From: an uncultured Bacilli bacterium
GTDB taxonomy: Bacteria > Bacillota_I > Bacilli_A > RFN20 > CAG-826
Assembly: GCA_944369075.1 (NCBI GenBank)
Contig: CALVXK010000006.1
Span: 11,380-75,379, forward strand
Length of the DNA: 64,000 nt
Direction: 5' to 3'
Shown: positions 46,253 through 62,232 of the stretch, piece after piece
Numbering within the stretch: position 1 is the stretch's first letter
Layout: every line of letters begins with the position of its first letter
Made by a program: the position numbers and the translations under genes
Notes under the pieces: generated by a model
The model's input: the letters and a program-made list of their open reading frames with translations, nothing else
What the model was told of the DNA's origin: nothing
Databases searched by the model: none

Positions 46253-46284
46253 AAAAAATAAGTGGAATTTACCACTTATTTTTT
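46253..46284. terminator. bidirectional intrinsic terminator
   Basis: An A run, then AATAAGTGG (46257-46265), a loop, CCACTTATT (46272-46280), then a T run. It overlaps the stop codon of the minus-strand ORF. Confidence 0.6.
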
Positions 46285-47297
46285 ACTTTCTCAATAAATC
46301 CATATGCATCACGGATGAAGTAAGTTTTTTCACCAACTTTAAATGTTCCATTATATTTTCCAAATATTTGATGTTGGTAAGTTGATGCAATAGGAGTAAT
46401 AGTATTTTCATTACGATCAACTATTGGTGTAAATACTAAATTAATATCATTTGATTCACTATACATTTTGATATCACCACTATAATCGATATCTTTTTTT
46501 CTTCTACCTTGTTTAAAATAGAATTTTACATCGTTAAATTTATAAGCGTTTTCGTTAACAAAGAGCATATTTTCACTAGCTTTCGATGTATCACCAAAAC
46601 CATAACCAAGATTAAAACCAACATAGTTACCCATTTCGTCTTTAGAAGAACAAGAAGCCCAATACCATGTTACTTTATGCGGCCATACTCCTCTTCCCCA
46701 ATCTAAAACTCCCATATTATCTTTAATAGAGTGAAGTTTATTGCCAATTTTAAAGTAACCATTTGCAATAAGGTTATTAATTTTTTGGTTATAATAAAAT
46801 TGACCTTTTTTAGAGAACGGAGTAACAATAACCATTGAATTCATTGAAGTTTCGGAAAGAATAATATCAAAATCTAAGTCTTTAGTATTATAAAAATTTG
46901 TAATATATCCTTTTATTTCTCTTTTATTTCCGTCATTTAAAAATTTTAGTTTAAAGTCTTTTGATTCAAAAGAAACATCTCCATTATCTGAAGATGGTGG
47001 TAAATTAAGTTTACCACGTGTAAACATTTTTACTTTTGATAAAGTTTTAAATCTTTTCTTAACAAGGTCAATTACTGAAACAGAGACTAGTCCAAATAAA
47101 GTTAAATCAGAAATAGTAAAAGCAATCGCATAATTTTCATTCATTATTGCGTAATAGTCCCATTCTTTTATTTTATTTTTTCTAAAAACAATATCTTTTC
47201 TACGATATTTTTTTACTAAAGAATAAGCAAAGCCAACTTCATTTAAATTACCTTCATAACTTAATAATCTGCCTTCTTTTAATTCGTGTTGTTCCAT
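46269..47297 (-). CDS. conserved hypothetical beta-rich protein (possibly DUF2804-like)
   Basis: 342 aa, soluble, rich in aromatic and glycine residues (WDYY, WGRGVWPHKVTWYWA). The family assignment is from memory only. Confidence 0.35.
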   Translation of the reverse strand: MEQHELKEGRLLSYEGNLNEVGFAYSLVKKYRRKDIVFRKNKIKEWDYYAIMNENYAIAFTISDLTLFGLVSVSVIDLVKKRFKTLSKVKMFTRGKLNLPPSSDNGDVSFESKDFKLKFLNDGNKREIKGYITNFYNTKDLDFDIILSETSMNSMVIVTPFSKKGQFYYNQKINNLIANGYFKIGNKLHSIKDNMGVLDWGRGVWPHKVTWYWASCSSKDEMGNYVGFNLGYGFGDTSKASENMLFVNENAYKFNDVKFYFKQGRRKKDIDYSGDIKMYSESNDINLVFTPIVDRNENTITPIASTYQHQIFGKYNGTFKVGEKTYFIRDAYGFIEKVKNKW

Positions 47298-47309
47298 TAG
47301 CTCTACCTC

Positions 47310-49010
47310 CTATTTTGCTTTAATATTGATATACATCATTATAAATTCATCTAAGGAATAATATATAGGTGTTCCATAAAATATTCCTGCTTCACTTTTA
47401 GCATGTACTGCCATATATTTTATATCATCTGGTTTAATTTCTTTAATAATTTTAGTTATTTCTAAATATTTATTTATTTTTTCTAGGAATAATATTAGAT
47501 CATCAGGTGTTGAACCTAGGTCTAAATATTTAGCTAGATATGACATTTTTTTAAACCCTCTTTTATTATATTTATATGTTCTTAAAACGTGAGGAGTTAA
47601 AGTAGCATTGGTTTTAGCGTGTCCTAAATTATATTTAAATGATAAAGGATGAGATAAAGCATGGATTATTCCGACTCCTTTATAAGAAAAAGCAATACCT
47701 GCTAAATAGGAAGCTAAAATAAAGTTTTTTCTTATTTTAGAAATATTATTTTGATCACTTAAATCAACATTATTATCTAATATGTCTTTAAAAGAAGAAG
47801 TAATTAACTTCATAGCTTCTAAAGCATACTTATCAAATCTATTAATCGAATATACATTTAAATAAGCTTCTAAGGCATGAGTAAAGGCATCAAGTATATG
47901 AGTTTCTAATACTTTTAAATCAAGTTTAGATATAAAGTTTTCGCCAAAAAATGTGTAATTTGGTACAAGTTTGAAAGATGTTATAGCGTATTTTCCTTCA
48001 TCAAAGGAAATAACACTTGAAGAAGTAGTTTCACTTCCACTACCTAAAATTGTTGGAATAGTAACTAAAAATGGTAGTTTCTTTTTAACTTTAAATTTAC
48101 CTGCATACTTACTTAAATTTTTATTTTTAGATGTGATTAATATTCCTAAAGCTTTTGTTAAATCGATAATTGATCCTCCACCAATTGCAAGAAGAGAATC
48201 CATTTTTGAATTTAAATACATTTTATAAACTTTATTAACTTCTTCAATACTTGGATTAACTATCGAAACATTATAAATATAGTAAGAAATGTTATTAGAT
48301 TCTAAATGTGATATTAATTCATGATGATAGTTAGATTTAAAAACTGTGTTAGATATAACAATAAATACTTTAGTTATCTTATTTTTCTTATAAACATCAA
48401 TTAATTCATCATAAGTTTTAAATGGTTTAGATTTATATATTTTCATTAATCTTAAAGTTAGATTAATGAAAATCTCAATAAACCTTTTAATAAATTTTAA
48501 AAATTTAGGTTCTTTATCAATTAAGTAATTTTTATTTACAATATTATTATTTATTAAATTATAAAGTTCTTTAGCTTGTTTAATGTGTCTAACTGTAACG
48601 ATATTACCGTTATTTAAATATATTAATACTTTAGAATTACTTGTTTGATAAGAATAGGCTGAAGAATACACCGCAAATATATCTTTAAAATATATTTTTA
48701 TTCTTCTAAAAGATTTATAAACAATAATATATCGATCATTAAAATCTAAATCTTTAGATATATCATATTTAACTAAATAAGAAGGTATAAGTAGATATAA
48801 GATAAAAAATATTAATAAGATTAATAAAACTAAAGATGATAATGTTAATATAATAACGTTAGTTAAATTATATGTAATCGTTAAGATATAACTAGAAAGT
48901 ATAATTAAAATTAATAAGAGGATAATTACTATTGAGTAAGGAATAATTACACTATAAGATTTTTTAATATTATATGTTAATTCTTTATTTGATATTTCTT
49001 TCTTTTCCAT
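47310..49010 (-). CDS. membrane-anchored fusion: two TM helices, a PH-like (bPH_2/DUF304-like) module and an iron-containing alcohol dehydrogenase domain
   Basis: Fe-ADH motifs are LLAIGGGSIIDL, TIPTILGSGSETT, LDAFTHALEAY and GIIHALSHPL. About 195 extra N-terminal residues carry two long hydrophobic helices. I prefer the ATG at 49010 (MEKKEIS) over the track's TTG at 49052. Confidence 0.75.
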   Translation of the reverse strand: MEKKEISNKELTYNIKKSYSVIIPYSIVIILLLILIILSSYILTITYNLTNVIILTLSSLVLLILLIFFILYLLIPSYLVKYDISKDLDFNDRYIIVYKSFRRIKIYFKDIFAVYSSAYSYQTSNSKVLIYLNNGNIVTVRHIKQAKELYNLINNNIVNKNYLIDKEPKFLKFIKRFIEIFINLTLRLMKIYKSKPFKTYDELIDVYKKNKITKVFIVISNTVFKSNYHHELISHLESNNISYYIYNVSIVNPSIEEVNKVYKMYLNSKMDSLLAIGGGSIIDLTKALGILITSKNKNLSKYAGKFKVKKKLPFLVTIPTILGSGSETTSSSVISFDEGKYAITSFKLVPNYTFFGENFISKLDLKVLETHILDAFTHALEAYLNVYSINRFDKYALEAMKLITSSFKDILDNNVDLSDQNNISKIRKNFILASYLAGIAFSYKGVGIIHALSHPLSFKYNLGHAKTNATLTPHVLRTYKYNKRGFKKMSYLAKYLDLGSTPDDLILFLEKINKYLEITKIIKEIKPDDIKYMAVHAKSEAGIFYGTPIYYSLDEFIMMYINIKAK

Positions 49011-49044
49011 ATTAAGTATAATTATAGAAAATATCTTACAAACT

Positions 49045-49560
49045 ATGAACAAATTATTTAAATTTATTACACTTTCCTTATCTATTTTATTATTATGTAA
49101 TATATCTTCTTGTTCTTCTAAAGTAGATTTACCTCATTTTAATCTAGATGAAAGTATTGATTATGTTACTTTTAAAGAATATGAATTAGATAATATTAAA
49201 AATATGTATAATCAAAAAGAAAATACCTACTATGTTTATTTGTATCGAATTGATTGCCCTACATGTAATACATGTAAAAACTCATTATTAGGTTATTTAG
49301 ATTTATATTCTAAAGGGGAAGTAGATACTAAATTATATTTATATAATACTGTAAATTTAAAAAATGATTATCCTTCATTTAATAATGGATCTAATTTTGA
49401 AGATGAAGAAGAAGTTAAAAATTATATGTTAAGTAATAACATTAATAAAATAGAAGATACTATTATTAAAGTAGTACCTTCCTTATATGTTATTAGTAAT
49501 AATTATTTAAGTGATTATTATTATGGCTATGATGTAATTTCTTATATATTTAATCTTTAG
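49045..49560 (+). CDS. thioredoxin-fold lipoprotein (CxxC)
   Basis: The signal peptide and lipobox read LLLCNISSCSS, and YLYRIDCPTCNTC carries the CxxC motif. Confidence 0.55.
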   Translation: MNKLFKFITLSLSILLLCNISSCSSKVDLPHFNLDESIDYVTFKEYELDNIKNMYNQKENTYYVYLYRIDCPTCNTCKNSLLGYLDLYSKGEVDTKLYLYNTVNLKNDYPSFNNGSNFEDEEEVKNYMLSNNINKIEDTIIKVVPSLYVISNNYLSDYYYGYDVISYIFNL

Positions 49561-50488
49561 TTATATATTTAGAAAAAAAGGAAGTCATTTTATTATTAAA
49601 ATCGATTGAATCATCTAAATCAGGATAAAGTACATTAAATACATGTATTGCTTTTTCATTATCTAAATCAACAAATTTATGTTCAATATTTAGTTTATTT
49701 AAATCATTATCAAGTAATTTAGATTGATATGAAAAAGATTTATCTCCTTTAGAAGTTAAAATAAGAATAGGAGAAATAGTAGAATCTTCTTTTAAAACTT
49801 CTTGAGGTTCACATTTATTATATAAATTAGATTTAATATAGTTTTTACCTAAAAGAGTTCTTTTTATGCCATCCATACATACTTCACTAAAATATTTTTC
49901 GTTAGGGATTCTACCTAAATCTTTAATGTAACAAGTAGCATGGTTTAAACATATTGCTTTAATATTTTTGTTATATTCTTTTTTAGAAAGATGATAAGTA
50001 TCGTATAAATCTTCATTATTTATTACCGCATTATATAAAAATATTAACTCTCCTCCAGCACTATCTCCAACCATAAATATATTGTTCATATCTAAATAAT
50101 ATTTATCTTTATTAGCATAAAGATAGTTTAAATAATCATCGATTTCATGAAGTTGATCGATTAATTTTGCTTTAAAAGCAAGAGTATAAGATAAAGTAGA
50201 CACATTAAAATTATATTTAGTTAAATGATAAGCAAAATTATCATCCATATCTTTATTTCCATATGCCCAACCTCCTCCATGGATATGGATTATTAATGGT
50301 CTAACTTCTTTAGTAGTATCATAATATAAATTAAATTCTAGGTTTTTCTTTGAATAAGTTGAATAAAATGAAGAAGATTCTTTAATTACATCTAAAGGGA
50401 GTGTTTCTTTAGCGTGTAATTTAGCATCTCCTATTGCAGCTTCTTTCCATATCTTTTTGTAGATATATTTAAATAATAAGTATTTCAT
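49550..50488 (-). CDS. alpha/beta hydrolase fold-3 esterase/lipase (HSL-like)
   Basis: 312 aa with oxyanion motif HIHGGGWAYG and nucleophile motif GDSAGG. Confidence 0.8.
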   Translation of the reverse strand: MKYLLFKYIYKKIWKEAAIGDAKLHAKETLPLDVIKESSSFYSTYSKKNLEFNLYYDTTKEVRPLIIHIHGGGWAYGNKDMDDNFAYHLTKYNFNVSTLSYTLAFKAKLIDQLHEIDDYLNYLYANKDKYYLDMNNIFMVGDSAGGELIFLYNAVINNEDLYDTYHLSKKEYNKNIKAICLNHATCYIKDLGRIPNEKYFSEVCMDGIKRTLLGKNYIKSNLYNKCEPQEVLKEDSTISPILILTSKGDKSFSYQSKLLDNDLNKLNIEHKFVDLDNEKAIHVFNVLYPDLDDSIDFNNKMTSFFSKYITKD

Positions 50489-50689
50489 ACGACGTATATT
50501 TTAATACAAAGTGTTGATAATTGCTTTAAAAATATTAGTAATATTTGATGGGAAGATTAAAATAAAGTTCCACGTGAGCATAATATAAAAATTAAAGGTA
50601 TTTTTGCATTGAAATTTAAAGTAATTGTTAGTGATTGTTAGTAAAATATAAATACCTATTATATAAGGTGAAAAAAGTGGTGTTTTTCG

Positions 50690-50705
50690 GTTTTCACGTG
50701 AAAAA
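50690..50705. promoter_or_regulatory. near-perfect 16-bp palindrome GTTTTCACGTGAAAAA (candidate operator)
   Basis: 15 of 16 positions are self-complementary around CACGTG. It is the best copy of the window-wide CACGTG-RAAAC motif and sits in the 588-nt esterase/SIR2 divergent spacer. Two further copies have CACGTG cores at 50571-50576 and 50795-50800. Confidence 0.5.
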
Positions 50706-51076
50706 TCGGGACATATTTTCAATGAAAAATGGAATGTAAATATAGTGTTTATATCTTTAATAAAAATTCGACAATAATGGTAATATTTTCTTATCACGTG
50801 GAAACTTTTTATTTGAATAATAAAAAGTAGATTTTTAAAATTACTAATTTTCTCCTAATGTAGTCATTTTCGATAAATATTACGCTGAATTAGCCATTGA
50901 ATTTGGCTTCTTAGGGTATTGCAAAATTCAATTTTATGGATTTAAGTTTCTATAGTAATAAGGATTACCTTGTATTTTTAAATTAAAATAAATTTAGAAA
51001 ATATTTATGTAATAATGTTTACTTAATTTAATGCTTTCGTGTTAGAATTTTTAATGGTAAGGAAACATTATTATTT

Positions 51077-52408
51077 ATGAAAAAAATAGAAAGAGAAGAT
51101 TATATATTTCAAAAGAAATGTTACTTAATATTACTTTATTTATTCTATTTAAATGGAGTTAGTTATAAATCGATTATTTCTAGATCATTTGGTTTCCATT
51201 TTGATCCTAAATGTAATTTTAAAGTAGTTGTTTTTTCAAATCATGAACATATTCATAAATATGTTATCCATATTTTTAATTCGTTATGGAAAGCAAATTT
51301 AGAAGAAATTGACGTTATGGGTAATGTCAATTTCTTTAAAGTTAAAAATGTAGATTATTTAGATCCATATATTCCCCAATCATCTTTGAATGTATATTTT
51401 GATGAATATAACTTTAGAGCGATAGGATTTATGGAAGGAAAAAAGATTGATTATCTATTAAAAGATAAGAATAATCCTAAATTTAAGAAAGATGAAGCTA
51501 AAGGGAATATCTTTAAAGATGATATATTATATTTATTAAATTTAGATAAAAATGTTGATAATGAAGAATCTTTTATACATTTCTTACTTAAACTATTTAC
51601 ATATAGAATAGATGTAGATTTAGTTTTAGGTAGTGGAATAAATGCAGATTATGGAGCAAAAGATTGGAAATCATTAACTCATAGTTTAAATGAAAAGTTT
51701 TATGAAGGTAGTATAGATCGAATTAAAGAAATACAACATTATGTTGGTGATGAACTATTTGTTTCTTCAAAGATATTAAAAGCTAATGGATTTGATACAT
51801 ATAAAGAATTAAATAAAGAATTATATTTATTTAAACCAGATATTGATTTTTTCTCTAATAAACAAACAACCTTGTATATAATTACTGATTATATTGCTAG
51901 ACACGATAAAACTACGGTAATTACATATAACTACGATACTAATTTAGAATATATTTTAAAGAAAAGAGGAATATTATATAACACTACTTATGATGATAAT
52001 TCTTTCTTAAATAAAGAAGCTAAAGTATCAATCTTCCATGTTCATGGATTACTTCCTTTTGATCGATATAATGAATATAAATTTACTGACTCATTAATTT
52101 TTAATGAGTCAGAATATTACTACTTATATAACAATCCTTATTCATGGAATATTGCTAAACAACTACATGATTTTATATTTAATACATCTATTTTTATTGG
52201 TATATCATTAACTGATCCAAATATGAAAAGATTATTAGAGTTGGCATCAAATCATTTGAAGTTTAATTTTATATTTATGAAAAGAGAAGAAGGGTTTGAT
52301 GCTAAAACATATAAAGATGTAACTAATTATTTCTTTACTTATGATTTAATTACTATTTGGATAAATGATTATAAAGAGATTAATGATTGGTTAAAAATAA
52401 TTGATTAA
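51077..52408 (+). CDS. SIR2_2-family (ThsA-type SIR2-like) putative NAD+ hydrolase with an uncharacterised N-terminal domain
   Basis: 443 aa. Residues from about 178 to the end carry LVLGSGINADYGAKDWKSL, VITYNYDTNLE (Asn285), IFHVHGLLPF (His323) and IFIGISLTDPNMKRLLE. The N-terminal ~175 aa belong to no family I recognise. Confidence 0.7.
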   Translation: MKKIEREDYIFQKKCYLILLYLFYLNGVSYKSIISRSFGFHFDPKCNFKVVVFSNHEHIHKYVIHIFNSLWKANLEEIDVMGNVNFFKVKNVDYLDPYIPQSSLNVYFDEYNFRAIGFMEGKKIDYLLKDKNNPKFKKDEAKGNIFKDDILYLLNLDKNVDNEESFIHFLLKLFTYRIDVDLVLGSGINADYGAKDWKSLTHSLNEKFYEGSIDRIKEIQHYVGDELFVSSKILKANGFDTYKELNKELYLFKPDIDFFSNKQTTLYIITDYIARHDKTTVITYNYDTNLEYILKKRGILYNTTYDDNSFLNKEAKVSIFHVHGLLPFDRYNEYKFTDSLIFNESEYYYLYNNPYSWNIAKQLHDFIFNTSIFIGISLTDPNMKRLLELASNHLKFNFIFMKREEGFDAKTYKDVTNYFFTYDLITIWINDYKEINDWLKIID

Positions 52409-52413
52409 TATTA

Positions 52414-53604
52414 ATGAAAATAAAAGTTAATGAATTAAATAAAGATTATTCTAATAATTTAGTAACTAAAAGAAGTAGAAGGTTTTTAATTTATCTAGCT
52501 TCTATTTTTTCTTTGCTTATTCTAGTATGTTTTATTCAAGGGTTAATTATTAAACCTTTAGGAGATTTAACTAGTATTTCTAAAAATCTTATTAGTAATA
52601 ATGTATCTATTAGAAATAATTTATATAACGAAGCTTTATCTTCTTCTTTACTAGAATATGAAGAAAAAAGTAATAATAAAGTATTATTAGATGTAGATGA
52701 AGTTATTTATAAAGAAATAAGAAGAGAATTAAAAACTTATATAGTTAATAATAATATTGATGTTAGAGGAGAATTAGTATCTACCTACCAAGAATTTAAT
52801 AATCTAAGTAAAGAAGAGAATATAAATTATTATTTATTTACATATCGAGCTAACTATTTAAAGATCAATGATATTCAAAATAAGGAATTTATTAATTCTT
52901 TATTTAATAAATATTTATCTAATTATTATAAAAATAACTATTTAGATAACTCTTATTTTGAATATCAAGATGATGTAGCATTAAGTTTAATTAAATATGT
53001 TTTTGAAGAAGATTATTCTTCTAAATATAAAGAACTATATGATGAATATTTAAGTAACTATACCTTATTTTATAATGAATTAATTCAAGATTTTGAAAGT
53101 ACTAACAATATATATAAAGATAATTTAATTAAACTTGATGAAAATACTAACAAATATAGTTTACTTTTATTAGTAGAAATATTTATTTCTTATTTTATTT
53201 CTTTTCTATTACTAGAGTTACTTCCTAGATTAATCTTTAAATCTGATGCTAATTTTATGTTTAAGTTATTTAAAGTTATTGGAATAAATAAAAAAACTAA
53301 TAAAAGTAAACTAAAGTTATACCAATATTTAATCTCCTTAGTTTTAAGCTTTATATTTAATATTTATATCTTATTCTTTGTATATCTATTCTTTTATTCT
53401 TCTTTTAACTTATTAAATGTATCTTTCTTTAATATATCATTCTTAGTAATTATTATCTTTACTTTACTTTTATCAATCTTAAATGCGATATATTCTTACT
53501 TTAATAAAAATAAACAAACAATGATTAACTATTTAAGTAAGATAATAATTAAAGATAAAGAAGAATATAATATTAGTACTAATAACAATGGAACAAGTAA
53601 GTAA
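52414..53604 (+). CDS. multi-pass membrane protein, RDD-like type A paralogue 1
   Basis: 396 aa with TKRSRRFLIYLASIF followed by TM1, a ~190-aa N/Y/E/K-rich loop domain and a C-terminal cluster of TM helices. It is clearly paralogous to 55488-56609 and lies 5 nt after the SIR2 gene. Confidence 0.6.
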   Translation: MKIKVNELNKDYSNNLVTKRSRRFLIYLASIFSLLILVCFIQGLIIKPLGDLTSISKNLISNNVSIRNNLYNEALSSSLLEYEEKSNNKVLLDVDEVIYKEIRRELKTYIVNNNIDVRGELVSTYQEFNNLSKEENINYYLFTYRANYLKINDIQNKEFINSLFNKYLSNYYKNNYLDNSYFEYQDDVALSLIKYVFEEDYSSKYKELYDEYLSNYTLFYNELIQDFESTNNIYKDNLIKLDENTNKYSLLLLVEIFISYFISFLLLELLPRLIFKSDANFMFKLFKVIGINKKTNKSKLKLYQYLISLVLSFIFNIYILFFVYLFFYSSFNLLNVSFFNISFLVIIIFTLLLSILNAIYSYFNKNKQTMINYLSKIIIKDKEEYNISTNNNGTSK

Positions 53605-54520
53605 TAAAAAAGTAGAACTACATTATGATGAAGCAAAAGTATCTAAAAGAATTATTTCTAGTATTTTAGATCTTATATTTTTACTTTTACTTTCATTAAT
53701 TTTATATTCTTCTTATTTTTTAATCTTACATAATTCTAGTTATTATAAAAATGAACTAAATACGATAAACAATGTCTTATTAGAATCTAAATTATATGTT
53801 AAAGATGGTGATAAAATATTAAGAATTGATGAATATTTAGATTCAAATAAAGATTATACTTATGAATATAAAATTAATGAAATAGATAATAGACTAAATT
53901 ATTTCTATATCGATTTAAATATTTATAGTAAGAACTCAAATATTGGTAAAGAAACTTTAGAAAAATATAAACATGATAATCCTGAGATATTTATTTATGA
54001 TGAAGAAAGTAAAGAATATGAAATTAATACTAATGCATCTTATTCATCTATTTATAGTTTCTATGTAAAGGTATTAGACGAATCAAGCGGGTACTTTTTA
54101 AATAACGAAACATATCGTTTAACTTCTTCTAATCTTACTAATTTAGAGATTGTTGGAATAGTATCTTCTTATATTATCTCTTATCTTATACTTTACCTTA
54201 TTGTTCCTATTTTTATCTTTCCACGTGGTAATTTAACTCTTGCTAAATTAATATTTAAATATGGTAGTTTAGGCGTTAATGGAATGTGTTTATCTAAAAG
54301 AAGATATTTAGTTAAATTTTTAATTAGTTTCTTTATCGAAAATTTATTATCTTTAGTAACTTTCTTTATCCCTTTAATCGTTTCCTTTGGTATGATGGTT
54401 TTATCTAAAACGCATCAAAATTTTAATGAATATATTACTAATACTTACTCTTTATCTTATGAAAATAAGAAGTTTTATAAGGATTATAACGAGTTCATTT
54501 ACGAGATTTATAAAAATTAG
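53588..54520 (+). CDS. RDD-family-like membrane protein, type B paralogue 1
   Basis: 310 aa with SKRIISSILDLIFLLL (R..D), FPRGNLTLAKLIFKYG and SKTHQNFNEYITNT. It is paralogous to 56599-57600 and overlaps the preceding gene by 17 nt. Confidence 0.6.
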   Translation: MEQVSNKKVELHYDEAKVSKRIISSILDLIFLLLLSLILYSSYFLILHNSSYYKNELNTINNVLLESKLYVKDGDKILRIDEYLDSNKDYTYEYKINEIDNRLNYFYIDLNIYSKNSNIGKETLEKYKHDNPEIFIYDEESKEYEINTNASYSSIYSFYVKVLDESSGYFLNNETYRLTSSNLTNLEIVGIVSSYIISYLILYLIVPIFIFPRGNLTLAKLIFKYGSLGVNGMCLSKRRYLVKFLISFFIENLLSLVTFFIPLIVSFGMMVLSKTHQNFNEYITNTYSLSYENKKFYKDYNEFIYEIYKN

Positions 54521-54554
54521 TATAATGGGAATTAACAAATGTAGGAGGAAAAAG

Positions 54555-54653
54555 ATGAAAATTAAGTCTTTTTTGAACTTGGTTTTAATCTTCCTTTCTC
54601 TTTGCTCATTTAAAAATTTAGAAAACAGTTTTATGTTCGTTCCTGGAAATTAG
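54555..54653 (+). CDS. small ORF (32 aa) with a signal/lipobox-like N-terminus
   Basis: AGGAGG lies 6 nt upstream of the ATG. The product is MKIKSFLNLVLIFLSLCSFKNLENSFMFVPGN. Only these last 32 codons of the track ORF 54426-54653 are plausible. Confidence 0.35.
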   Translation: MKIKSFLNLVLIFLSLCSFKNLENSFMFVPGN

Positions 54654-54827
54654 CTAGGAAGAATGGACAAGCTGAATATGAGAATAATTATCAAAGATAT
54701 AGAAATTAAGAAGAATTTGTGTCTATGGAAGCAATAGAAGTAGAAGCTGAAACGGGCTAAAAGATATAATTTATATAGGAAATAAGCACGCGATTGAAGG
54801 AAGCAAAAAAGTTTATTGGAGGTAAAT

Positions 54828-55427
54828 ATGGTATTAGAATTTAAAATTTTGGATAAAATTAATGAAAGAAAGCTTGATTCGGATGTCTTAAAATCAGATT
54901 TATCTTTAACTGATAAAGAAATAAAACAAATTAAAAAATATAATTTTTCCCCGTCTTTTGAAAAATTATTAAGAATAACAAATTATTTTGAGTTTAGTGA
55001 TAAAGACAAAGACGAAATAATGGCTGAATATAAGGACAAACAATGTTCAAGATCTAATAAATTCACTAAAATAAATTTTTTCAATTTATTATCTATTATT
55101 TCTTCTATATTTTTATTAGTATTAATTCTGACAATTTATAACTTAAACAAAGTAGATACCTCTAGACGCTACCTTACTGATATATGGACTATATTTTTTC
55201 TCGTATCAGCATTATTGTTTTTGTGTATTAGTTTATTTTCAATTGCCTATGTATTTTCAGCTTTGGTTTTTTATGGAAATGCGCTAATGATTGATAGAAT
55301 TAAATATATTGTATCTCTGATTTTGATGGTTTTATCCTTTGCTATACTTTTATCAGCATTATTATTATTATCTTCAAATTTTGTGGAAATTATTTTATAT
55401 TTAAGCCGTAGATATATTATAGATTAG
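54828..55427 (+). CDS. membrane-anchored XRE-type HTH protein
   Basis: The N-terminal ~70 aa have the HTH_XRE layout (ILDKINERKLDSDVLKSDLSLTDKEIKQIKKYNFSPSFEKLLRITNYFEFS), followed by about four TM helices. The ATG at 54828 follows GGAGG. Confidence 0.6.
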   Translation: MVLEFKILDKINERKLDSDVLKSDLSLTDKEIKQIKKYNFSPSFEKLLRITNYFEFSDKDKDEIMAEYKDKQCSRSNKFTKINFFNLLSIISSIFLLVLILTIYNLNKVDTSRRYLTDIWTIFFLVSALLFLCISLFSIAYVFSALVFYGNALMIDRIKYIVSLILMVLSFAILLSALLLLSSNFVEIILYLSRRYIID

Positions 55428-55487
55428 TAAGTAAGCTACATAAATTCTTTATTGTTAATTCCTCTTTTATAATGTTTAATATTTAAG

Positions 55488-56609
55488 ATGGAATTTAAAG
55501 AAGAGAATAAAAAACACATAGATATATATCCAACAAAGGTAGGAAGAAGAATCTTAGTATTCTTGGGAGAAATATTTTTAACTTTAATAATTTCAACTAT
55601 TCTTTTCGAATTAGTAATCTTTCAAATTTCTAGACCAATAATAAAATACGATCAAATAACCGAAAATATTTCATCTTCTCAAGAAAAAATATTTAGACTG
55701 CTTTATGAAAGAGAATTACTTTTTTATGAAGATAACACTAATGTTTATAACATTAACGATAGTCTAGAATATACCAATTCGTTATTACTAAAATATTATG
55801 TTTTCGAAGATAAAGAAGATGAAAATAAAGAAATTTTTGTAAATTATGTTGTTAACTATAAAGAAGATAAAGCTGATAGAATTAACGAACTTTATCTTCT
55901 TTATGGTAAAGAATATTTTGATACCTCATCTTTTACTTCTTTAGGTACTTATAAACTAAAAGAACAGTATAAAGAAGCTTTCTCGCATAATTATCTTGAA
56001 GGGGATGAGATGTCAACTGAAGCTTATGAAGATTTTAACAATTTTCGAGATAATGTATTTGTTAAACTTTTTGGTGCTTTAACTGATGATATTGCTCTTA
56101 ATGATTTAAAATCGCTCGATGGAACTTACTCTTATTTATCGCTTAGAAATGATATAGAAGATAACGAAAATGTTTTACAAAACGATTATATAATCTGTTC
56201 TTATATTTCATTTGTTATTACATGTGTCATTTTATATTTTGTTATTCCTTTAACAAATAATAAAAGACAAACTTTAATTGAAAAAATATTAAAAGTTGAA
56301 AGAATAAATAAAAATGATATGTCTTATTTAAAAAGAAATATGGTTATTAGTGTATCGTTATTTAAAGTAATTGATGCAATGGTTTTAATGTTTTTAATTC
56401 CTTTTCTAAGAGTAGGTTTATCTTATTTATTTTCATTACCTATTTTATATTTACCTTCATTAATTGCATTAATTATTGTTATTATCAATTTATTTATTAC
56501 AATATTTACAACATTTAATACTTCTTTAAAAGAAATCACTACTAATTCAATAGTAGTAGATGAATCAAGTTTAAATCAATATTACGAAGAATTAGGCTAT
56601 GGAAAATAA
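55488..56609 (+). CDS. multi-pass membrane protein, RDD-like type A paralogue 2
   Basis: 373 aa with TKVGRRILVFLGEIF followed by TM1, a loop domain and a C-terminal TM cluster. It aligns by eye with 52414-53604. Confidence 0.6.
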   Translation: MEFKEENKKHIDIYPTKVGRRILVFLGEIFLTLIISTILFELVIFQISRPIIKYDQITENISSSQEKIFRLLYERELLFYEDNTNVYNINDSLEYTNSLLLKYYVFEDKEDENKEIFVNYVVNYKEDKADRINELYLLYGKEYFDTSSFTSLGTYKLKEQYKEAFSHNYLEGDEMSTEAYEDFNNFRDNVFVKLFGALTDDIALNDLKSLDGTYSYLSLRNDIEDNENVLQNDYIICSYISFVITCVILYFVIPLTNNKRQTLIEKILKVERINKNDMSYLKRNMVISVSLFKVIDAMVLMFLIPFLRVGLSYLFSLPILYLPSLIALIIVIINLFITIFTTFNTSLKEITTNSIVVDESSLNQYYEELGYGK

Positions 56610-57600
56610 TCACGTGGAAACAAAAAAGAAAATAGACTTAACTTATTATCGCGCGAGATTCTCACAAAAGTTTGGAGCGATGATTATTGACTTCGTCGTT
56701 TTTGCTATTTTAGGTTTGCTTCTTTTTATGGGAGCAAAAGGAATAGTAGAAGCTACTCCAAAATTTTATGAAATCAATCATAATTTAGAAGTCGCTCAAG
56801 TAAATTCATCTTTATATATTTATTCAAGTGATAGAGACCGTGTCGAAGATGTTGTTACTTATATCAACTATAGAAAAGATATGTCTTCAGCTGAGATCGA
56901 AACATTTTTAACTACAAGAATATATGAATTTTTTGATTCTTTACCAGAATATAAAGAAGAACTAGAAAACGAATACTTAGAATCTATATCTAGAAGCGAT
57001 CTAACTTATAATGGTAATCCTTATTTTATTAAAGATGAAAATGGAGAAGTAGTTAAAAACACTGAAGCTAATATTCCGATTGCTCAATATAATAACAACA
57101 TTTATAAACCTTATATTGATAATATTGCTTTAGCACAATTTATAATTAAAACCCCAAATGTTTTAGATTATCAAAAGTTTTTATCAAATATGTTATTTTT
57201 TGTAGAAATTCCAGTTGGAGTGATACTTTCTACAACGATAACTTTTTATATAATTCCTTTAATTTTCTTTAGAGGTAGAAAGACTTTAGGAAGACTTTCA
57301 ATGAGAATCGGGCTTTTAGATTCAAATAACTATAATGTTAATTTTTGGAAGTTTACTTTAAGATTTGTAATATTTTTATTTTTAGAAGTAATACTTTCCG
57401 TTGCTACTTTAGGAATTCCTTTAATTATTTCTTTATCAATGTCAGCTTTTTCTAAGAAAAAACAAAATTTCCATGATTATATGCTTGGAATAATAGAAGT
57501 TGATACTTATGGAACTAAAATCTATAAAGATAAATTCGAAGTCTCGAAAGAAGAAAATAGAATGAAATTAACGGATTTTAATCCTACTAGAAAGTTTTAA
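56599..57600 (+). CDS. RDD-family membrane protein, type B paralogue 2
   Basis: 333 aa and the most canonical RDD signature of the four: YYRARFSQKFGAMIIDFVVF, FFRGRKTLGRLSMRIGLLD and KKQNFHDYMLGIIEV. It overlaps the preceding gene by 11 nt. Confidence 0.65.
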   Translation: MENNHVETKKKIDLTYYRARFSQKFGAMIIDFVVFAILGLLLFMGAKGIVEATPKFYEINHNLEVAQVNSSLYIYSSDRDRVEDVVTYINYRKDMSSAEIETFLTTRIYEFFDSLPEYKEELENEYLESISRSDLTYNGNPYFIKDENGEVVKNTEANIPIAQYNNNIYKPYIDNIALAQFIIKTPNVLDYQKFLSNMLFFVEIPVGVILSTTITFYIIPLIFFRGRKTLGRLSMRIGLLDSNNYNVNFWKFTLRFVIFLFLEVILSVATLGIPLIISLSMSAFSKKKQNFHDYMLGIIEVDTYGTKIYKDKFEVSKEENRMKLTDFNPTRKF

Positions 57601-57672
57601 AGGAGATTTTTTCGACTTTTCTTTCATATGAAAGAGCTAAAACAATTTTACAGTGTAATGTTTATTTTCATG

Positions 57673-57701
57673 TTGTTATTGAAACTACTAATCGATATAA
57701 T
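57673..57701 (+). promoter_or_regulatory. promoter abutting the start codon of the surface-protein gene (candidate leaderless mRNA)
   Basis: TTGTTA (57673-57678), 17 nt, TATAAT (57696-57701), then 6 nt to the ATG at 57708. There is no SD sequence. Confidence 0.4.
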
Positions 57702-57707
57702 TAAGTC

Positions 57708-59243
57708 ATGAAGTTTAAAAAATTAGCTTTGAGTTTTCTATACCTTTTTATAGGGGTAGCTACCTGTTCATTTACTTCAAACGAATCTAATGTTTCTTCA
57801 CTTGAAACAATTTCTAAAAGTGCAGAAATTTCTGCTAATAACGGAGTTAATGGTGAACTAGGAACATTAAATACTGACTTAGAAGTCCAACTTAGATCAT
57901 ATGCTGTTACTGAATTAAGTGCATCGTTTCAAGTTTTAATTAATTTTTCTGAAACAGCAAATTTACAAAATAACTATTATGTCGGTTATTTAGGCGAGGG
58001 TGATGAATATTTACCTGCATCTTTAAGGTTTTATGTGAAACAAACTGATGGTCAAGTCGTTCAAAGAAGCGCAGCAATTAATAAGGCTCAACAAAACAAT
58101 AATTATGATGGGCTAGGTTCTTCTTTAGGTGCTAATTCTTTAAACACTTATTGTGACATTGACATAGCTTATGGCGAACAAGTCCTTTATGATATGGGTA
58201 TTGAACTCTTTAATATTTTTCCTTATAACAGCGATACAAGAACTGTAGATTTAGATAATCCAACATATTCTACATGTATAACTACATCATTAGATGCAAA
58301 TGTTTTTGCCCCAATATACAATTCCGAAGATTTTTTTAAATTAAGTTATAATGGCAGTAGCAATTTCTCTGGCTATTCTACTTTTACATTTAATGTTGAG
58401 GATAAGGGAATAGCGCTTTATGAATCGTTAAGTGCAACTACTGCTAGAGCTTTTATGGAATATGAAGATTATATTAACGATGGAAGATATTATATTAGAA
58501 GTATTCTTTCCTTTGGTGGTGACACAGAGTTTGTCTTAACACATAAAGATGGCACAATCCAAAGATTAGAATCAACCTCTATGCAATATGAAGTTACAGG
58601 CGGCGGCCAAGTTGTTTTACTTTTTGAAAACATTGATGCTGATGATATAGAAAAGGTTGAAATTTACGATTTATACTATCAATTAGGAATTTATAACCCA
58701 GATACTGGAAGAGACTTAAATAGAACAACCTTTAATCAAAGATTCGGTCGTATTTATACTGGCATGGAAGATTTAAAGGATTCTTCGGGAGTTACTATTT
58801 CAAGTGAAATTACAGGCGCATTTAATATTAATTATGATCTGATTGTTGGTTTAACATTTGGTCTATCGACGTTAATATTCTTGGGAATCGTTATTCCTTC
58901 ATATTTCTACTTAAAGAAAAAGAATAGAAACGATGAATTTAAGAGAATGAATACAAAATCTTATGTTACAACTGCTACGATGGGCTATTTAACAATTGAG
59001 TCTGTGTTGTTGTTAGTGGTTTTTATTGTAATTAGGTCGACAACATTTGCAAACTCACTCGTTGTTTATAATCCAACAGATCCTTATATTATTGTTCTTG
59101 GTGTCGCAAGTATTATCCTTGTTGGTTACTTTATTAGATACTTTGTTATTGCAGCTAAAAATAATGCTGAAAAGAGAAGAAGAGATAAACTTAAAATTAA
59201 CCAAGATGTTATTGATGACGGAACACTTATCATTCGTAAATAA
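57708..59243 (+). CDS. surface protein with a lipoprotein-type signal peptide and three C-terminal TM helices
   Basis: 511 aa. The N-terminus reads MKFKKLALSFLYLFIGVATC. A ~360-aa domain rich in beta-favouring residues follows, then three hydrophobic helices and a basic tail. Confidence 0.6.
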   Translation: MKFKKLALSFLYLFIGVATCSFTSNESNVSSLETISKSAEISANNGVNGELGTLNTDLEVQLRSYAVTELSASFQVLINFSETANLQNNYYVGYLGEGDEYLPASLRFYVKQTDGQVVQRSAAINKAQQNNNYDGLGSSLGANSLNTYCDIDIAYGEQVLYDMGIELFNIFPYNSDTRTVDLDNPTYSTCITTSLDANVFAPIYNSEDFFKLSYNGSSNFSGYSTFTFNVEDKGIALYESLSATTARAFMEYEDYINDGRYYIRSILSFGGDTEFVLTHKDGTIQRLESTSMQYEVTGGGQVVLLFENIDADDIEKVEIYDLYYQLGIYNPDTGRDLNRTTFNQRFGRIYTGMEDLKDSSGVTISSEITGAFNINYDLIVGLTFGLSTLIFLGIVIPSYFYLKKKNRNDEFKRMNTKSYVTTATMGYLTIESVLLLVVFIVIRSTTFANSLVVYNPTDPYIIVLGVASIILVGYFIRYFVIAAKNNAEKRRRDKLKINQDVIDDGTLIIRK

Positions 59244-59254
59244 AGGAGTTATAT

Positions 59255-61156
59255 ATGGAAATTAAACTTAAGGGCATAACAAAGGTTTTCCCAGGAAATC
59301 CTAAAAAACATATTAAAGACACTGTTGCAGTTGATGATTTTGATTTAACTGTTCCTGACGGTGCTTTAGTTGGCTTGCTTGGACCTTCTGGTTGTGGTAA
59401 ATCAACAACTCTATATATGATTTCTGGTTTACAAACTCCAACAAGTGGGGAAGTTTGGTTTGGTGAAGAAGAAGTTACTAATCTTTCGCCTGAAAAAAGA
59501 GGAATTGGCTTAGTTTTCCAAAATTACGCACTTTATCCTCATATGACTATTTATAAAAACGTTGAATTTCCACTTTTAAACTTAAAGGTTGAAGTTCCGC
59601 TTGTTACATTCTTTGATTTCCATATTAGCTACATTTATGACATGAAAGAAGATGACCACGTTGAAGGTATTGTCCGTTCAACAAAAACTTTACTTGGAAA
59701 AATCGGTATTTCAAAGAAAAATTATAAAATTACATCTTCTTTGAGTGGTAATAATTTGACTTTAGTTGTTGATTTATTAAATCAAAACGAAAGAGATAAG
59801 GATTTGTTCTTAGATAATTTCTCAAGAATTATTGAGCCAAAGACAACTAATGTTGAGCAAAAACAAACTAGTGACGCATTATTTGATGCAAAAATGAGAT
59901 TCTCTTATGCTTTAGATAGTTCTGAGAAAATCTGCAATGGTCAATTTATTTTTGACCTAGATGTTAAAAAAGAAGAAAGCGGAATTTTAATTTCTGATAT
60001 ATTGGATTTTATAAGATCTAAAGGATTTAAAATCGCTTATTCTCCTTCTTACGAAAATAAAGGTAAAACAGTTTTACTTGTTTCGTTGATTAGTAAATCG
60101 GAAAAAGATGCTTTAGAATGCGTTAAAGAAGTTGAAAATAACTTTAATTGCAAAGGTTCTTTGAGAATAGATAATGTTGAAACAAAAGAAATTAAAAAAG
60201 AGCTTTATCATGCATTAAAAAAATTCGCTTCACATATCAAAGAATTAAGTGCATATGATGATAAAGGAGATACTCAAATTTACTTCTTAATTAAGAAACT
60301 AAAAGAAGAAGAAGTAGATGAAGTTAGAAATATTGTTAAACAAACTTTTAATGTCAAAAAAGAAGATGTTAAAACAAGTGTTGCTTTAGCTTATAGAAAA
60401 TTAACAGCTAACGAAAGAAAAGATATTGTTCACGAAACTGCAAAACTTGTTCAAATCGAAGAATATCTCGAAAGAAAGCCAGCTCAACTCTCTGGCGGAC
60501 AACAACAAAGAGTTGCTATTGCTAGAGCTTTAGTTAAGAAACCAAAGGTTTTACTTTTAGACGAACCTCTATCAAACTTAGACGCTCGTTTAAGACTTCA
60601 AACTAGAGAAGAAATTAGAAGAATTCAACAAAATACAGGAATTACTACAGTCTTCGTTACTCATGACCAAGAAGAAGCAATGTCTATTTGTGATCAAATT
60701 GTTGTCATTAAAAATGGTATTAAGCAACAAGTTGATAGTCCGCAAAATGTTTTTAATAACCCTAAAAATTTATTCGTCGCTCAATTCTTAGGAAATCCAC
60801 CAATCAATGTTTTTAAAGGAAAAGTTAAAAACAAAGGTATTTATATTGGCGAAGATTTAATTTATCGAACAACAACAGACATTAAGGATCAAGATGTTTA
60901 TGTAGCAATTAGACCTGAAGGCTTTGCTCTTACAAACGAAGATGATCATGTCTTACATGCAAATGCTGAAATGATTCAAGTTTTAGGTAGAGATATTTCC
61001 ATCATCTCAAAAAACGATAATTGCTTATCTCCAACATTTAAAGTTATTATTCAGCACGTTGAACAAAACTTACTTGGAGAAATTAAACTTAAAGTTTTAC
61101 CTAATAAATTATTCATCTTTGATGAACATACAGAGGAAAGAATTTATATCGACTAA
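59255..61156 (+). CDS. MalK/UgpC-type ABC importer ATPase with a ~270-aa insertion in the helical subdomain
   Basis: 633 aa with Walker A GPSGCGKST, Q-loop VFQNYALYPHMT, signature LSGGQQQRVAIARA, Walker B LLLDEPLSNLDA, and a C-terminal regulatory (TOBE-like) domain. Confidence 0.9.
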   Translation: MEIKLKGITKVFPGNPKKHIKDTVAVDDFDLTVPDGALVGLLGPSGCGKSTTLYMISGLQTPTSGEVWFGEEEVTNLSPEKRGIGLVFQNYALYPHMTIYKNVEFPLLNLKVEVPLVTFFDFHISYIYDMKEDDHVEGIVRSTKTLLGKIGISKKNYKITSSLSGNNLTLVVDLLNQNERDKDLFLDNFSRIIEPKTTNVEQKQTSDALFDAKMRFSYALDSSEKICNGQFIFDLDVKKEESGILISDILDFIRSKGFKIAYSPSYENKGKTVLLVSLISKSEKDALECVKEVENNFNCKGSLRIDNVETKEIKKELYHALKKFASHIKELSAYDDKGDTQIYFLIKKLKEEEVDEVRNIVKQTFNVKKEDVKTSVALAYRKLTANERKDIVHETAKLVQIEEYLERKPAQLSGGQQQRVAIARALVKKPKVLLLDEPLSNLDARLRLQTREEIRRIQQNTGITTVFVTHDQEEAMSICDQIVVIKNGIKQQVDSPQNVFNNPKNLFVAQFLGNPPINVFKGKVKNKGIYIGEDLIYRTTTDIKDQDVYVAIRPEGFALTNEDDHVLHANAEMIQVLGRDISIISKNDNCLSPTFKVIIQHVEQNLLGEIKLKVLPNKLFIFDEHTEERIYID

Positions 61157-61161
61157 GATTT

Positions 61162-62232
61162 ATGGAAAATACAACAATTTCTAAAAATTACGATTTGACT
61201 TTATCTCGAGATCAAGTATTTGATGGAATGAAAGAAGGATATCTTTCAAAATACGATGAATCAAAGGATGTAATTGTTCACTTTGTATCTAGAAAAAAAG
61301 CAAAGGAAAAATTTAAAGTTGGCGGCGTTTTAGATAACGAGCAATCTAACAACTGGAAAGCCTGGCTTTATTTAGCCCCTGTTCTTATATTAATGGCAAT
61401 TTTCTTAATTTATCCTTTAATTAATACAATTGTCATTTCCTTCATGAGCAACTACAACTATGTTACTGGGGATTTTGACGGATTTACGCTTAATAACTTT
61501 GGAGCAATCTTAGGTTTAAGTGATATTAATGGCTATCGAGATAATAGACTTATTGATTATGGATTTGTTAACACATTTTTAATTACATTTGTAACTGTTC
61601 CATTATCACTTGTTATTGCTTTACTTATTTCGGTTTTGCTTAATTCATTAAAATGGTTAAAGAAAGTATATCAAGTTGTATTCTTCCTTCCATATGTTAC
61701 AAACACTATCGCTATTGGTATGGTTTTTAGTGTCTTATTTGATAAACAAGGTATTATTAACTACATATTTGGAAGCGATATAACTTGGATTTATGGCGCC
61801 GATAGATGGACCGCAATGGTTCCGTTATGCATTTATATTGTTTGGTCGTCATTGCCATTTAAGATTCTTATCTTATTAAGCGGTTTACAAGGAGTTGATA
61901 AACAATATTATCAAGCAGCAAAAATTGACTCTACGCCAAAATGGAGAGTTTTGCTTAGAATTACAGTTCCTGCATTATCTCCTCAGATTCTCTATTTAAT
62001 GGTTACATCATTTATCGGAGCATTTAAGGAATACAGCTCAATTGTTGCTTTATTTAACGGCCCTGGTACTTCAACTGGCAGTTATAATATGTATACAATA
62101 GTTTATTATATTTACGATAACTTAACATCGAATACGAGTTTAGCTGCCGCAGCTGCTGTTATCTTATTTATTATCATTCTTATTTTTACATTCTTACAAC
62201 TTTGGCTCTCTAAGAAGAGAGTTCACTATTAG
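61162..62232 (+). CDS. carbohydrate ABC importer permease (MalF/UgpA-like)
   Basis: 356 aa with six TM helices and the EAA-loop region QAAKIDSTPKWRVLLRITVP. Confidence 0.88.
   Translation: MENTTISKNYDLTLSRDQVFDGMKEGYLSKYDESKDVIVHFVSRKKAKEKFKVGGVLDNEQSNNWKAWLYLAPVLILMAIFLIYPLINTIVISFMSNYNYVTGDFDGFTLNNFGAILGLSDINGYRDNRLIDYGFVNTFLITFVTVPLSLVIALLISVLLNSLKWLKKVYQVVFFLPYVTNTIAIGMVFSVLFDKQGIINYIFGSDITWIYGADRWTAMVPLCIYIVWSSLPFKILILLSGLQGVDKQYYQAAKIDSTPKWRVLLRITVPALSPQILYLMVTSFIGAFKEYSSIVALFNGPGTSTGSYNMYTIVYYIYDNLTSNTSLAAAAAVILFIIILIFTFLQLWLSKKRVHY

Follow-up and report, generated by a model that had tools for sequence, protein, structure and literature searches.

A SIR2_2 gene of uncultured gut Bacilli and its association with RDD-type membrane proteins and an ABC importer

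The subject of this work is a gene for a SIR2_2 ('sirim') protein of 443 amino acids (aa) in a stretch of 64,000 nucleotides (nt) from an uncultured Bacilli bacterium (assembly GCA_944369075.1, contig CALVXK010000006.1, positions 11,380 to 75,379 of the forward strand). The whole stretch is referred to as the window and the gene as the SIR2 gene. The genes downstream of it encode two pairs of RDD-type membrane proteins (A1 with B1 and A2 with B2), a probable lipoprotein of 511 aa (M511), and the components of an ATP-binding cassette (ABC) importer. Bacterial SIR2_2 proteins are currently taken as markers of anti-phage immunity and are flagged so by genome-mining pipelines. Judged from the comparison of many genomes, the SIR2 gene is part of the core genome in a low-GC lineage of uncultured gut Bacilli and is inherited vertically there. 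In most species, it adjoins an A/B pair and an ABC importer of the CUT1 type.

Thoeris ThsA (PDB 6lhx, 8wc0, and 8bto) is the best structural and profile match of the C-terminal half of the protein (Foldseek E = 1.7e-10; profile E = 2.6e-16). Both proteins have the GxG, TxNYD, and HG motifs and the C-terminal element F(I/V)G(I/F)S(L/F)TDPN. However, they are only 15-20% identical, and their domains are arranged in the opposite order, as the SIR2 domain here is C-terminal. Unlike ThsA, the protein carries no SLOG (STALD) or Macro domain (Pfam, PADLOC), has no neighbour of the TIR-domain ThsB type, and is encoded in a core-genome context and not in a defence island. DSR2, SIR2-HerA, and Kongming KomC share the SIR2_2 catalytic fold and the catalytic His. 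The DSR1 and DSR2 proteins differ by their length (~1000-1200 aa), their N-terminal SIR2 domain, and their large C-terminal sensor. SIR2-HerA, SPARSA (SIR2-APAZ/pAgo), AVAST-SIR2, and Kongming differ by their partner gene or domain, which was not found in the window or its relatives. The original prediction, made from the sequence of this locus, had stated that the architecture fits no named system. This statement stands, with no SLOG, TIR, HerA, pAgo, or STAND domain in the protein or its neighbours. The search for TIR, HerA, pAgo/APAZ, STAND, and KomA/B covered nine neighbours in the window (Pfam, PADLOC) and the Pfam tables of six related loci (L001-L006), and none of them was found.

The vertebrate FAM118A/B (SIRanc) proteins share the sirim fold and are matched by the same profile (E = 1.4e-13 for human FAM118B). 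They are also lineage-fixed, vertically inherited, and clade-wide, as the family in this work is. They have been reported as weak and tightly regulated NAD processors and not as suicide effectors (PMC12700824; bioRxiv 10.1101/2024.09.18.613514). FAM118A/B differ from the family here in that they are eukaryotic, form filaments, are linked to innate immunity, have no transporter association, and lack the N-terminal domain of this family. The macrodomain-linked bacterial sirtuins, SirTM, which are mentioned in PMC12700824, are a precedent within the bacterial SIR2 superfamily, as they are reportedly operon-embedded and non-immune regulatory protein ADP-ribosyltransferases. Unlike the family here, SirTM are not SIR2_2 proteins, and they share an operon with a macrodomain protein, GcvH-L, and LplA2 and not with membrane transport proteins.

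The only characterised RDD protein that was found is a Na+(Li+,K+)/H+ antiporter of Halobacillus andaensis (PMC5996927). The RDD family (PF06271) is shared with that antiporter, where B1 and B2 pass the threshold and A1 and A2 are their paralogues. In contrast to the antiporter, the proteins here occur as A/B pairs, have inserts of 145-200 aa between the first and second transmembrane (TM) segments, and are encoded inside ABC importer clusters. No description of the SIR2 protein family, of a link between SIR2 and RDD/ABC genes, or of a non-immune bacterial SIR2_2 protein was found in the literature.

SIR2 domain and N-terminal domain of the protein

The four motifs that the original prediction had quoted are present in the translation, and its assignment of the protein to the SIR2_2 (ThsA-type) family was borne out by Pfam, Foldseek, and profile alignment. 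The Pfam SIR2_2 domain (PF13289) matches residues 280-405 (E = 2.2e-13) with 50.9 bits at a gathering cut-off of 24.5 bits, and it is annotated on all 120 listed homologues. The domain has GxG (G185/G187), NxD (N285/D287), and HxHG (H321/H323) motifs. The residues G185, G187, N285, D287, H321, H323, and G324 are invariant among 22 family members, and they are still invariant in a 41-sequence alignment of family and outgroup, which includes 34 outgroup proteins. The profile search against PDB sequences places the predicted catalytic Asn and His where they were expected. N285 aligns with N112 of BcThsA, which is Ala in PDB 8bto/8btp, and H323 aligns with H152 of ThsA and H146 of KomC, the latter of which is mutated in 9xvc.

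The combined profile of family and outgroup matches DSR2 (E = 1.7e-9), KomC, and SIR2-HerA among the PDB sequences, in addition to ThsA and FAM118B with the E-values given above. The profile of the family alone matches only ThsA (E = 0.26), and the outgroup sequences are needed for the ThsA, KomC, FAM118B, and DSR2 matches. The AlphaFold model of the full-length protein has a predicted local distance difference test (pLDDT) score of 71 and a predicted template-modelling (pTM) score of 0.76. Its top Foldseek neighbours are EcThsA, BcThsA, DSR2, KomC, and SIR2-HerA (E = 1e-10 to 1e-7), with all matches confined to the C-terminal half (TMq ~0.4). The confidence of the model is low at residues 324-365, which are located beside the active site.

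The protein has Cys only at C15 and C46, both in its N-terminal part and none in the SIR2 domain, and so the Zn-binding Cys tetrad of classical sirtuins is missing. The published criteria of a sirim are GxG, xxNxD, and no Zn site (bioRxiv 10.1101/2024.09.18.613514), and by these criteria the 443-aa protein is a bona fide sirim. No TM segment was found in it by hydropathy. We infer from its sequence that the protein is enzymatically active.

The N-terminal ~175 residues, for which the original prediction had recognised no relative, were modelled alone as residues 1-178 (pLDDT 84, pTM 0.83). Foldseek searches with this model returned nothing significant from PDB (best E = 0.046, TM 0.33) or from BFVD. 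The model is an alpha/beta domain in which a long helix (residues 3-25) is followed by seven beta strands and then by three short helices. This helix and beta-sheet fold, with no significant PDB or BFVD neighbour, gives no support to a winged-helix or DNA-binding N-terminus, the former of which the original prediction had suggested. A resemblance to PD-(D/E)XK-like folds is faint (TM 0.3 or lower), and it was too weak to be used.

The invariant polar residues of the N-terminal domain among the 22 family members include R36, H41, D43, C46, K49, H60, K61, H65, D79, N85, and N105, and the domain is 46-68% identical between the relatives and the window. A conserved domain with invariant polar residues suggests that a conserved ligand or partner is bound there and not that the domain is an arms-race sensor.

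The nearest relatives outside the family are uncharacterised proteins of ~450 aa with equal length and architecture, such as P0131, P0135 (Abiotrophia), and P0134 (Lachnospiraceae). Their SIR2 half is 28-37% identical to that of the family and shares the LYNxPYSW and SLTDPNxRRLL signatures. Their N-terminal domain is unrelated in sequence. A profile hidden Markov model (HMM) of the family N-terminal domain has no match in 110 outgroup SIR2_2 proteins, of which 80 share a different N-terminal domain of their own, and the hhalign alignment of family versus outgroup (E = 1.6e-56) spans residues 159-435 only. Since neither comparison finds a shared N-terminal domain, the SIR2 module was retained and its N-terminal partner exchanged. 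The outgroup genes are sporadic and occur in a type I restriction-modification (R-M) operon, after a YD-repeat (Rhs) toxin cluster, or as solitary insertions, and none of them is beside RDD or ABC importer genes. The locus of P0131, which is the nearest outgroup protein, consists of hsdM, three unannotated genes, the SIR2_2 gene, and hsdR with a serine recombinase nearby (L087 and L088, 2923-11448). This locus may be a SIR2-augmented R-M defence locus.

Distribution, selection, and gene neighbourhood

The 120 listed homologues are all full length (~435 aa) with 54-97% identity, and the few that are named come from Candidatus Enterosoma, Erysipelotrichaceae, or Bacilli metagenome-assembled genomes (MAGs). 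Clustering at 50% leaves a single full-length representative of the family (574 bits). The next full-length relatives in the representative search reach at most 134 bits at 28-37% identity and match only residues ~160-441. By these sequence comparisons, the family is one tight orthologous group. The gene was found in at least 114 species by a scan of one genome per species, which is a count of carriers. The 80 loci that were fetched all belong to uncultured gut or rumen Bacilli (Onthovivens, Enterosoma, CAG:288, and 'Mollicutes' UMGS). We take this lineage to be RF39-like in GTDB. The closest relative (L007), practically the source organism itself, has 97% identity and identical gene order. 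Many 'cleanbin' MAG records with the locus (L012, L014, L017, L032, L045, L048, L049, L056, L059, L066, and L086) are titled Bacteroides, Lachnospiraceae, Alistipes, Roseburia, Parasutterella, and others, and they are evidently mislabelled bins.

A stop-free and full-length SIR2 copy is present in all 86 loci, which come from at least 80 species, except for one that is cut by the contig end. SIR2 is better conserved than any other gene of its cluster, with a mean identity between pairs of 63%, while the ABC ATPase reaches 59% and the permease 55%. The median identity to the window is 59% for SIR2, 26% for A, and 31% for B, and it is 30% for M511, which was found in 21 other loci. The ratio of nonsynonymous to synonymous substitution rates (dN/dS) between the window and L007 is 0.047 for SIR2, which is the lowest value in the cluster together with that of the DUF2804 gene. 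The ratios for B1 (0.23) and M511 (0.19) are higher, and all values are well below 1. The synonymous rate (dS) in the same comparison (46269-61156) varies more than tenfold between genes, from 0.06 (ATPase) and 0.07 (HTH-membrane gene) through 0.36 (SIR2) and 0.63 (B2) to 0.91 (DUF2804). This spread suggests a recombination mosaic.

The 20 kb upstream of the SIR2 gene in the window hold housekeeping genes. GAPDH-PGK-TIM and S12-S7-EF-G-EF-Tu are directly upstream in L005, and the neighbourhoods of L003 and L001 hold SecY to rpoA-L17 and PncB-NadD-NadE, respectively. PADLOC found only generic ABC and P-loop matches in the neighbourhood of the window and no defence system nearby, and it found no match on the membrane proteins. 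For the SIR2 protein, the PADLOC run that had been proposed on the locus gave a weak ThsA1 match (E = 1.7e-6), which covers no more than the SIR2 region (profile positions 95-274 of 478). The examined loci show neither nearby defence systems nor a patchy mobile distribution. The original prediction had framed the gene as an orphan defence or abortive-infection module. That framing does not fit a single lineage-wide orthologous group with the strongest local purifying selection and housekeeping flanks. Of the two signs that it had proposed to look for in other genomes, co-occurrence with the A/B pair is conserved, but a defence-island context was not found.

A NUDIX hydrolase of 180 aa, for which PADLOC gives a weak PDC-S07 match, and a small NERD-domain protein (207 aa) are encoded at 42949-44154. 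Their genes are 7-8 kb upstream of the SIR2 gene and not adjacent to it, and no such genes were found near SIR2 at the other loci. The NAD salvage genes pncB (NAPRTase), nadD, and nadE are located 1-6 kb upstream of SIR2 in the clade with 74% identity. Together with a flavodoxin-like gene, they sit between the P171 and BD-FAE genes (L001 2146-6096; also L002, L009, and L011). They are missing at the equivalent position in the window. This linkage is limited to one clade (L001, L009, and L011) and was regarded as anecdotal. In L057, which is a 2.08-Mb contig of 'Bacilli bacterium UW_DM_BACIL1_1', a flavin mononucleotide (FMN) riboswitch (108 bits) is located ~2 kb downstream of SIR2 on the minus strand (13426-13537) and appears unrelated to the finding.

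The linkage of the SIR2 gene to the membrane and importer genes was surveyed by searching the window proteins against the open reading frames (ORFs) of all loci. Among 79 loci, the gene directly downstream of SIR2 is of the RDD-type A/B kind in 55 and encodes the importer ATPase in five more, which are 76% together. The upstream neighbour belongs to 25 families across 70 loci. The median gap between SIR2 and the next gene is 3 nt. At least seven arrangements keep SIR2 adjacent to the module. The commonest arrangement is SIR2>A>B>(M511)>ATPase>perm>perm. The other arrangements have an inverted A/B pair (L014, L018, and L019), an importer entirely divergent from SIR2 (L057 and L067), A/B between the ATPase and permeases (L035, L058, and L079), SIR2 immediately before the ATPase (L064 and L072), SIR2 downstream of the importer (L075 and L083-L086), or two clusters flanking SIR2 (L070-L074).

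The asymmetry of the neighbours and the adjacency through so many arrangements indicate a linkage that is either selected or, at the least, highly persistent. The earlier caveat that the linkage may be fortuitous is answered by the 76% of loci given above, and the linkage is not fortuitous. There are also A/B pairs without SIR2: the window has one as its second pair, and L056, L060, and L070-L074 have second copies. The A/B proteins thus belong primarily to importer clusters, and a single-copy SIR2 gene sits beside one of them.

The loci without such linkage exhibit three other contexts. The first is HAD-SIR2-PsuG-PfkB, which has a HAD phosphatase upstream, a PsuG-like (Indigoidine_A) gene 10 nt downstream, and a PfkB kinase (L003 7309-11131; also L045, L048-L050, L055, and L069). 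The second has ArsR/CopZ/P-type ATPase divergent from SIR2-MalQ-RimO, and the third is BD-FAE/SIR2. The HAD/PsuG/PfkB context is one of ribose-phosphate and nucleoside catabolism, and it may hint at a metabolic use of ADP-ribose.

Membrane proteins and importer in the window

The features of the locus are shown in Table 1. The coordinates of the first three ORFs, the gap of 5 nt between the SIR2 stop and the A1 start, and the overlap of 17 nt between A1 and B1 agree with the original prediction, as does the second membrane pair without a SIR2 gene (ORF map, Pfam). A2 and B2 overlap by 11 nt. The prediction had also read the first three genes as one translational unit. Their tight spacing stands, but they are not self-contained and the pair belongs to a larger CUT1 importer cluster.

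Table 1. Positions of the SIR2 gene, its domains, and the neighbouring features in the window.
Feature	Position	Strand	Basis
Upstream non-coding region, ~590 nt, presumably holds the SIR2 promoter	50489-51076	+	ORF list, sequence
SIR2 gene, 443 aa	51077-52408	+	ORF map
N-terminal domain, SIR2 protein residues 1 to ~175	51077-51600	+	AlphaFold model, invariant columns
SIR2_2 ('sirim'-type) domain, residues ~176-443	51601-52408	+	Pfam PF13289, Foldseek, residue alignment
A1 membrane protein, 396 aa, paralogue of RDD-type B	52414-53604	+	hhalign, hydropathy
B1 RDD-family membrane protein, 310 aa	53588-54520	+	Pfam RDD, hydropathy
203-aa protein, weak XRE-like helix-turn-helix (HTH), three C-terminal TM segments, between both A/B pairs	54816-55427	+	Pfam, hydropathy
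A2 second A-type RDD-like membrane protein, 373 aa	55488-56609	+	ORF list; in A family for hhalign
B2 second RDD-family membrane protein, 333 aa	56599-57600	+	Pfam RDD
M511 probable lipoprotein, 511 aa	57708-59243	+	Sequence, hydropathy
ABC importer ATPase, 633 aa, UgpC/MalK/PotA-like	59255-61156	+	NCBIfam
ABC importer permease, UgpA/MalF-like	61162-62232	+	NCBIfam
ABC importer permease, UgpE/MalG-like	62244-63221	+	NCBIfam
Solute-binding lipoprotein, start only, runs past the window end	63243-64000	+	tblastn, lipobox LSAC

The RDD-like nature of the 310-aa protein (B1) was confirmed by Pfam (E = 3e-5), where its 24.8 bits pass the cut-off of 24.1 bits for PF06271. B2 also matches Pfam RDD (E = 1.5e-11, 45.2 bits). 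The A homologues have weak or faint precomputed RDD matches. The alignment of the A and B families by hhalign (99.8%, E = 1.1e-28) shows that they are homologous over their full length, and by this comparison the A and B proteins are paralogues. They probably form a heterodimer of two paralogous RDD-type membrane proteins. The hydropathy of A1 shows TM1 at residues 28-46, an insert of ~200 aa that is presumably extracytoplasmic, and three TM segments at 249-359. B1 has TM1 at residues 22-40, a presumably extracytoplasmic insert of ~145 aa, and TM segments at 188-206 and 253-271. The B consensus has a K-R...D motif at the start of TM1. The single-sequence search with B2 and the profile search with the B family found only proteins of the same lineage, in searches whose reach is limited by the selection of candidates through shared words. 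The 203-aa protein matches Pfam HTH_19 below the cut-off (E = 0.0024) and was found only in the window and L007 among the examined loci.

The A2-type genes head M511-ABC clusters in many species. M511 has a signal peptide with VATC and C-terminal TM segments, and no family match was found for it in Pfam and NCBIfam. Its gene is always directly upstream of the ATPase gene in one of two paralogous cluster types ('type 2'). The best NCBIfam match of the ATPase is UgpC (E = 4.7e-100) in two stretches (residues ~1-112 and 377-630). An insertion of ~265 aa (residues ~112-377; 59591-60385) splits its nucleotide-binding domain, and no Pfam match was found for the insertion alone. The insertion could be a regulatory or docking domain and a target or partner of the SIR2 protein. 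The best NCBIfam matches of the permeases are UgpA and UgpE, and BPD_transp_1 is found on their homologues. The UgpC, UgpA, and UgpE scores are all below the equivalog cut-offs, and these names therefore do not fix the substrate. The solute-binding lipoprotein is 75% identical to a protein of L011 that matches SBP_bac_8 and SBP_bac_1 (tblastn). The cluster thus has the components of a CUT1-type importer, which are a MalK/UgpC-type ATPase, two BPD_transp_1 permeases, and an SBP_bac_1/8 lipoprotein.

An AAGGAA element that resembles a Shine-Dalgarno sequence is located ~14 nt upstream of the SIR2 ATG. No Rfam match was found upstream of SIR2 in the window and four relatives, with no riboswitch or leader to reveal a ligand. 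The promoter scan gave fewer promoter-like sites than in shuffled sequence, and the terminator scan gave one terminator-like site on the opposite strand; both scans carry little information in this DNA of 20-25% GC. An ORF of 98 aa with a GTG start upstream of SIR2 (50501-50797, minus strand) encodes a low-complexity hydrophobic sequence and is probably spurious. An iron-containing alcohol dehydrogenase homologue (47310-49052, minus strand) is extended at its N-terminus by ~200 aa with hydrophobic, TM-like stretches, an unusual feature in its family. The window has ~25% GC, and its signal recognition particle (SRP) RNA and its housekeeping genes, which encode Mfd, TilS, FtsH, Dus, and LysS, mark it as chromosomal.

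Proposed role and alternative explanations

The SIR2 gene looks more like a gene for a domesticated enzyme than a mobile defence system. We infer a non-immune role of the protein and a physical or functional coupling to the membrane proteins. In the reading that we prefer, the protein would be a domesticated and regulated enzyme that works with the transport module, consumes NAD+ by hydrolysing it or transferring ADP-ribose, and is gated via its N-terminal domain. The chance that this reading is correct is about even. The protein would be soluble and cytoplasmic, with an intact NAD+-cleaving SIR2_2 domain and a lineage-specific N-terminal domain that replaces that of its nearest relatives. Its gene would be the leading and tightly coupled gene of an operon with the RDD pair and a complete CUT1 importer in most species. 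The N-terminal domain would act as a gate or adaptor that binds a conserved small molecule or attaches to the membrane module from the cytoplasm. The SIR2 domain would consume NAD+, either by hydrolysis to nicotinamide and ADP-ribose or by transfer of ADP-ribose. This use of NAD+ would couple the uptake module to the NAD or energy state of the cell, or the NAD state to uptake. Such a role would be regulatory or metabolic and comparable to the weak signalling-type NADase activity of vertebrate FAM118/SIRanc.

A more specific version is tentative and somewhat doubtful. In this version, a sirim swapped its N-terminal sensor and became a fixed core part that docks on or signals with the heteromeric RDD pair and ABC importer, and that gates or reports uptake by NAD+ cleavage or ADP-ribosylation.

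Several points weigh against the preferred reading of a domesticated enzyme coupled to transport. Every characterised bacterial SIR2_2 protein is an immune effector, and the clade is regarded as immune in the literature. Conservation would also be compatible with a suicide NADase under tight autoinhibition, and the species count is one of carriers only. The gene occurs in other contexts in ~18 of ~80 species and therefore does not strictly require the RDD pair or importer everywhere, and the 18 unlinked loci form one contiguous part of the SIR2 tree. SIR2 occurs beside either of the two paralogous types of A/B-ABC cluster, which speaks against a highly specific partnership between proteins. 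In the mirror-tree comparison, SIR2 and the transporter genes correlate positively but only moderately (Spearman 0.33-0.37), a comparison that is confounded by the two paralogous transporter types.

The alternative that survives best, which we nevertheless consider unlikely, is a chromosomally fixed abortive-infection module. In such a module, the fast-evolving surface RDD pair, with the lipoprotein and importer, would sense, for example, phage adsorption, DNA injection, or membrane perturbation and signal to the cytoplasmic N-terminal domain, which would release the NADase to deplete NAD+. The faster divergence of A, B, and M511 than of SIR2, with their higher dN/dS, is expected of arms-race surface proteins. 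However, all dN/dS values stay well below 1, and the N-terminal domain, which would be the sensor itself, is strongly conserved (~46-68%). The closest functional relatives by fold and sequence are all anti-phage NADases, the nearest outgroup gene is inside a type I R-M operon, and the sirim clade is generally strongly enriched in defence neighbourhoods according to the literature, but no defence-island context was found in the window or the examined relatives. The intact catalytic residues favour such a module, but the gene shows no sign of loss or pseudogenisation and has one locus type across at least 114 species. The conserved linkage of SIR2 to the membrane pair also fits a membrane sensor, although one part of the tree keeps SIR2 with no adjacent pair.

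A housekeeping NAD+/ADP-ribose or ribosyl enzyme that is independent of the membrane proteins is less probable still. Here, the adjacency would reflect shared transcription or an inherited operon, and this explanation would suit a protein that lacks TM segments and whose gene occurs beside both paralogous cluster types. Against this, neighbour turnover is asymmetric, with 25 upstream families against 76% RDD or ATPase genes downstream, and the proximity outlasts co-transcription in the loci with inverted or divergent arrangements (L057, L067, L014, L018, and L019). The ~18 species with HAD-SIR2-PsuG-PfkB or SIR2-MalQ-RimO contexts favour such an enzyme, as does pncB-nadD-nadE upstream in the 74%-identity clade, but the clustering of the unlinked loci in a single part of the tree implies few losses. 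A pseudo-enzyme, which would serve as an NAD-binding scaffold or sensor and report NAD(H) levels to the transporter without cleaving NAD+, is very improbable, since the invariance of GxG, NxD, and the catalytic His in more than 80 species and the outgroup is hard to explain without catalysis, even with the low AlphaFold confidence of residues 324-365 beside the active site and the very weak activity of individual FAM118 proteins.

The SIR2_2 domain was already known, and the novelty lies in the N-terminal domain, in the status as a core gene, and in the association with a transporter. As this family demonstrates, a slow-evolving core gene in a nutrient-uptake operon of an abundant gut lineage can encode a fully 'armed' sirim. 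The family challenges the equation of bacterial sirim with mobile defence, with a mechanism that is proposed and hosts that are uncultured. If the protein is a fixed abortive-infection switch with a membrane sensor, hosts without a wall or with a reduced genome would have a new architecture of NAD-depletion immunity. A regulatory or metabolic role would parallel the domestication of vertebrate FAM118 and caution against calling defence from a domain alone. A domesticated and uptake-coupled sirim would be the first with a non-immune role in bacteria and would give the first functional handle on the RDD family. In either reading, the locus provides a testable context for RDD membrane proteins and a new N-terminal domain.

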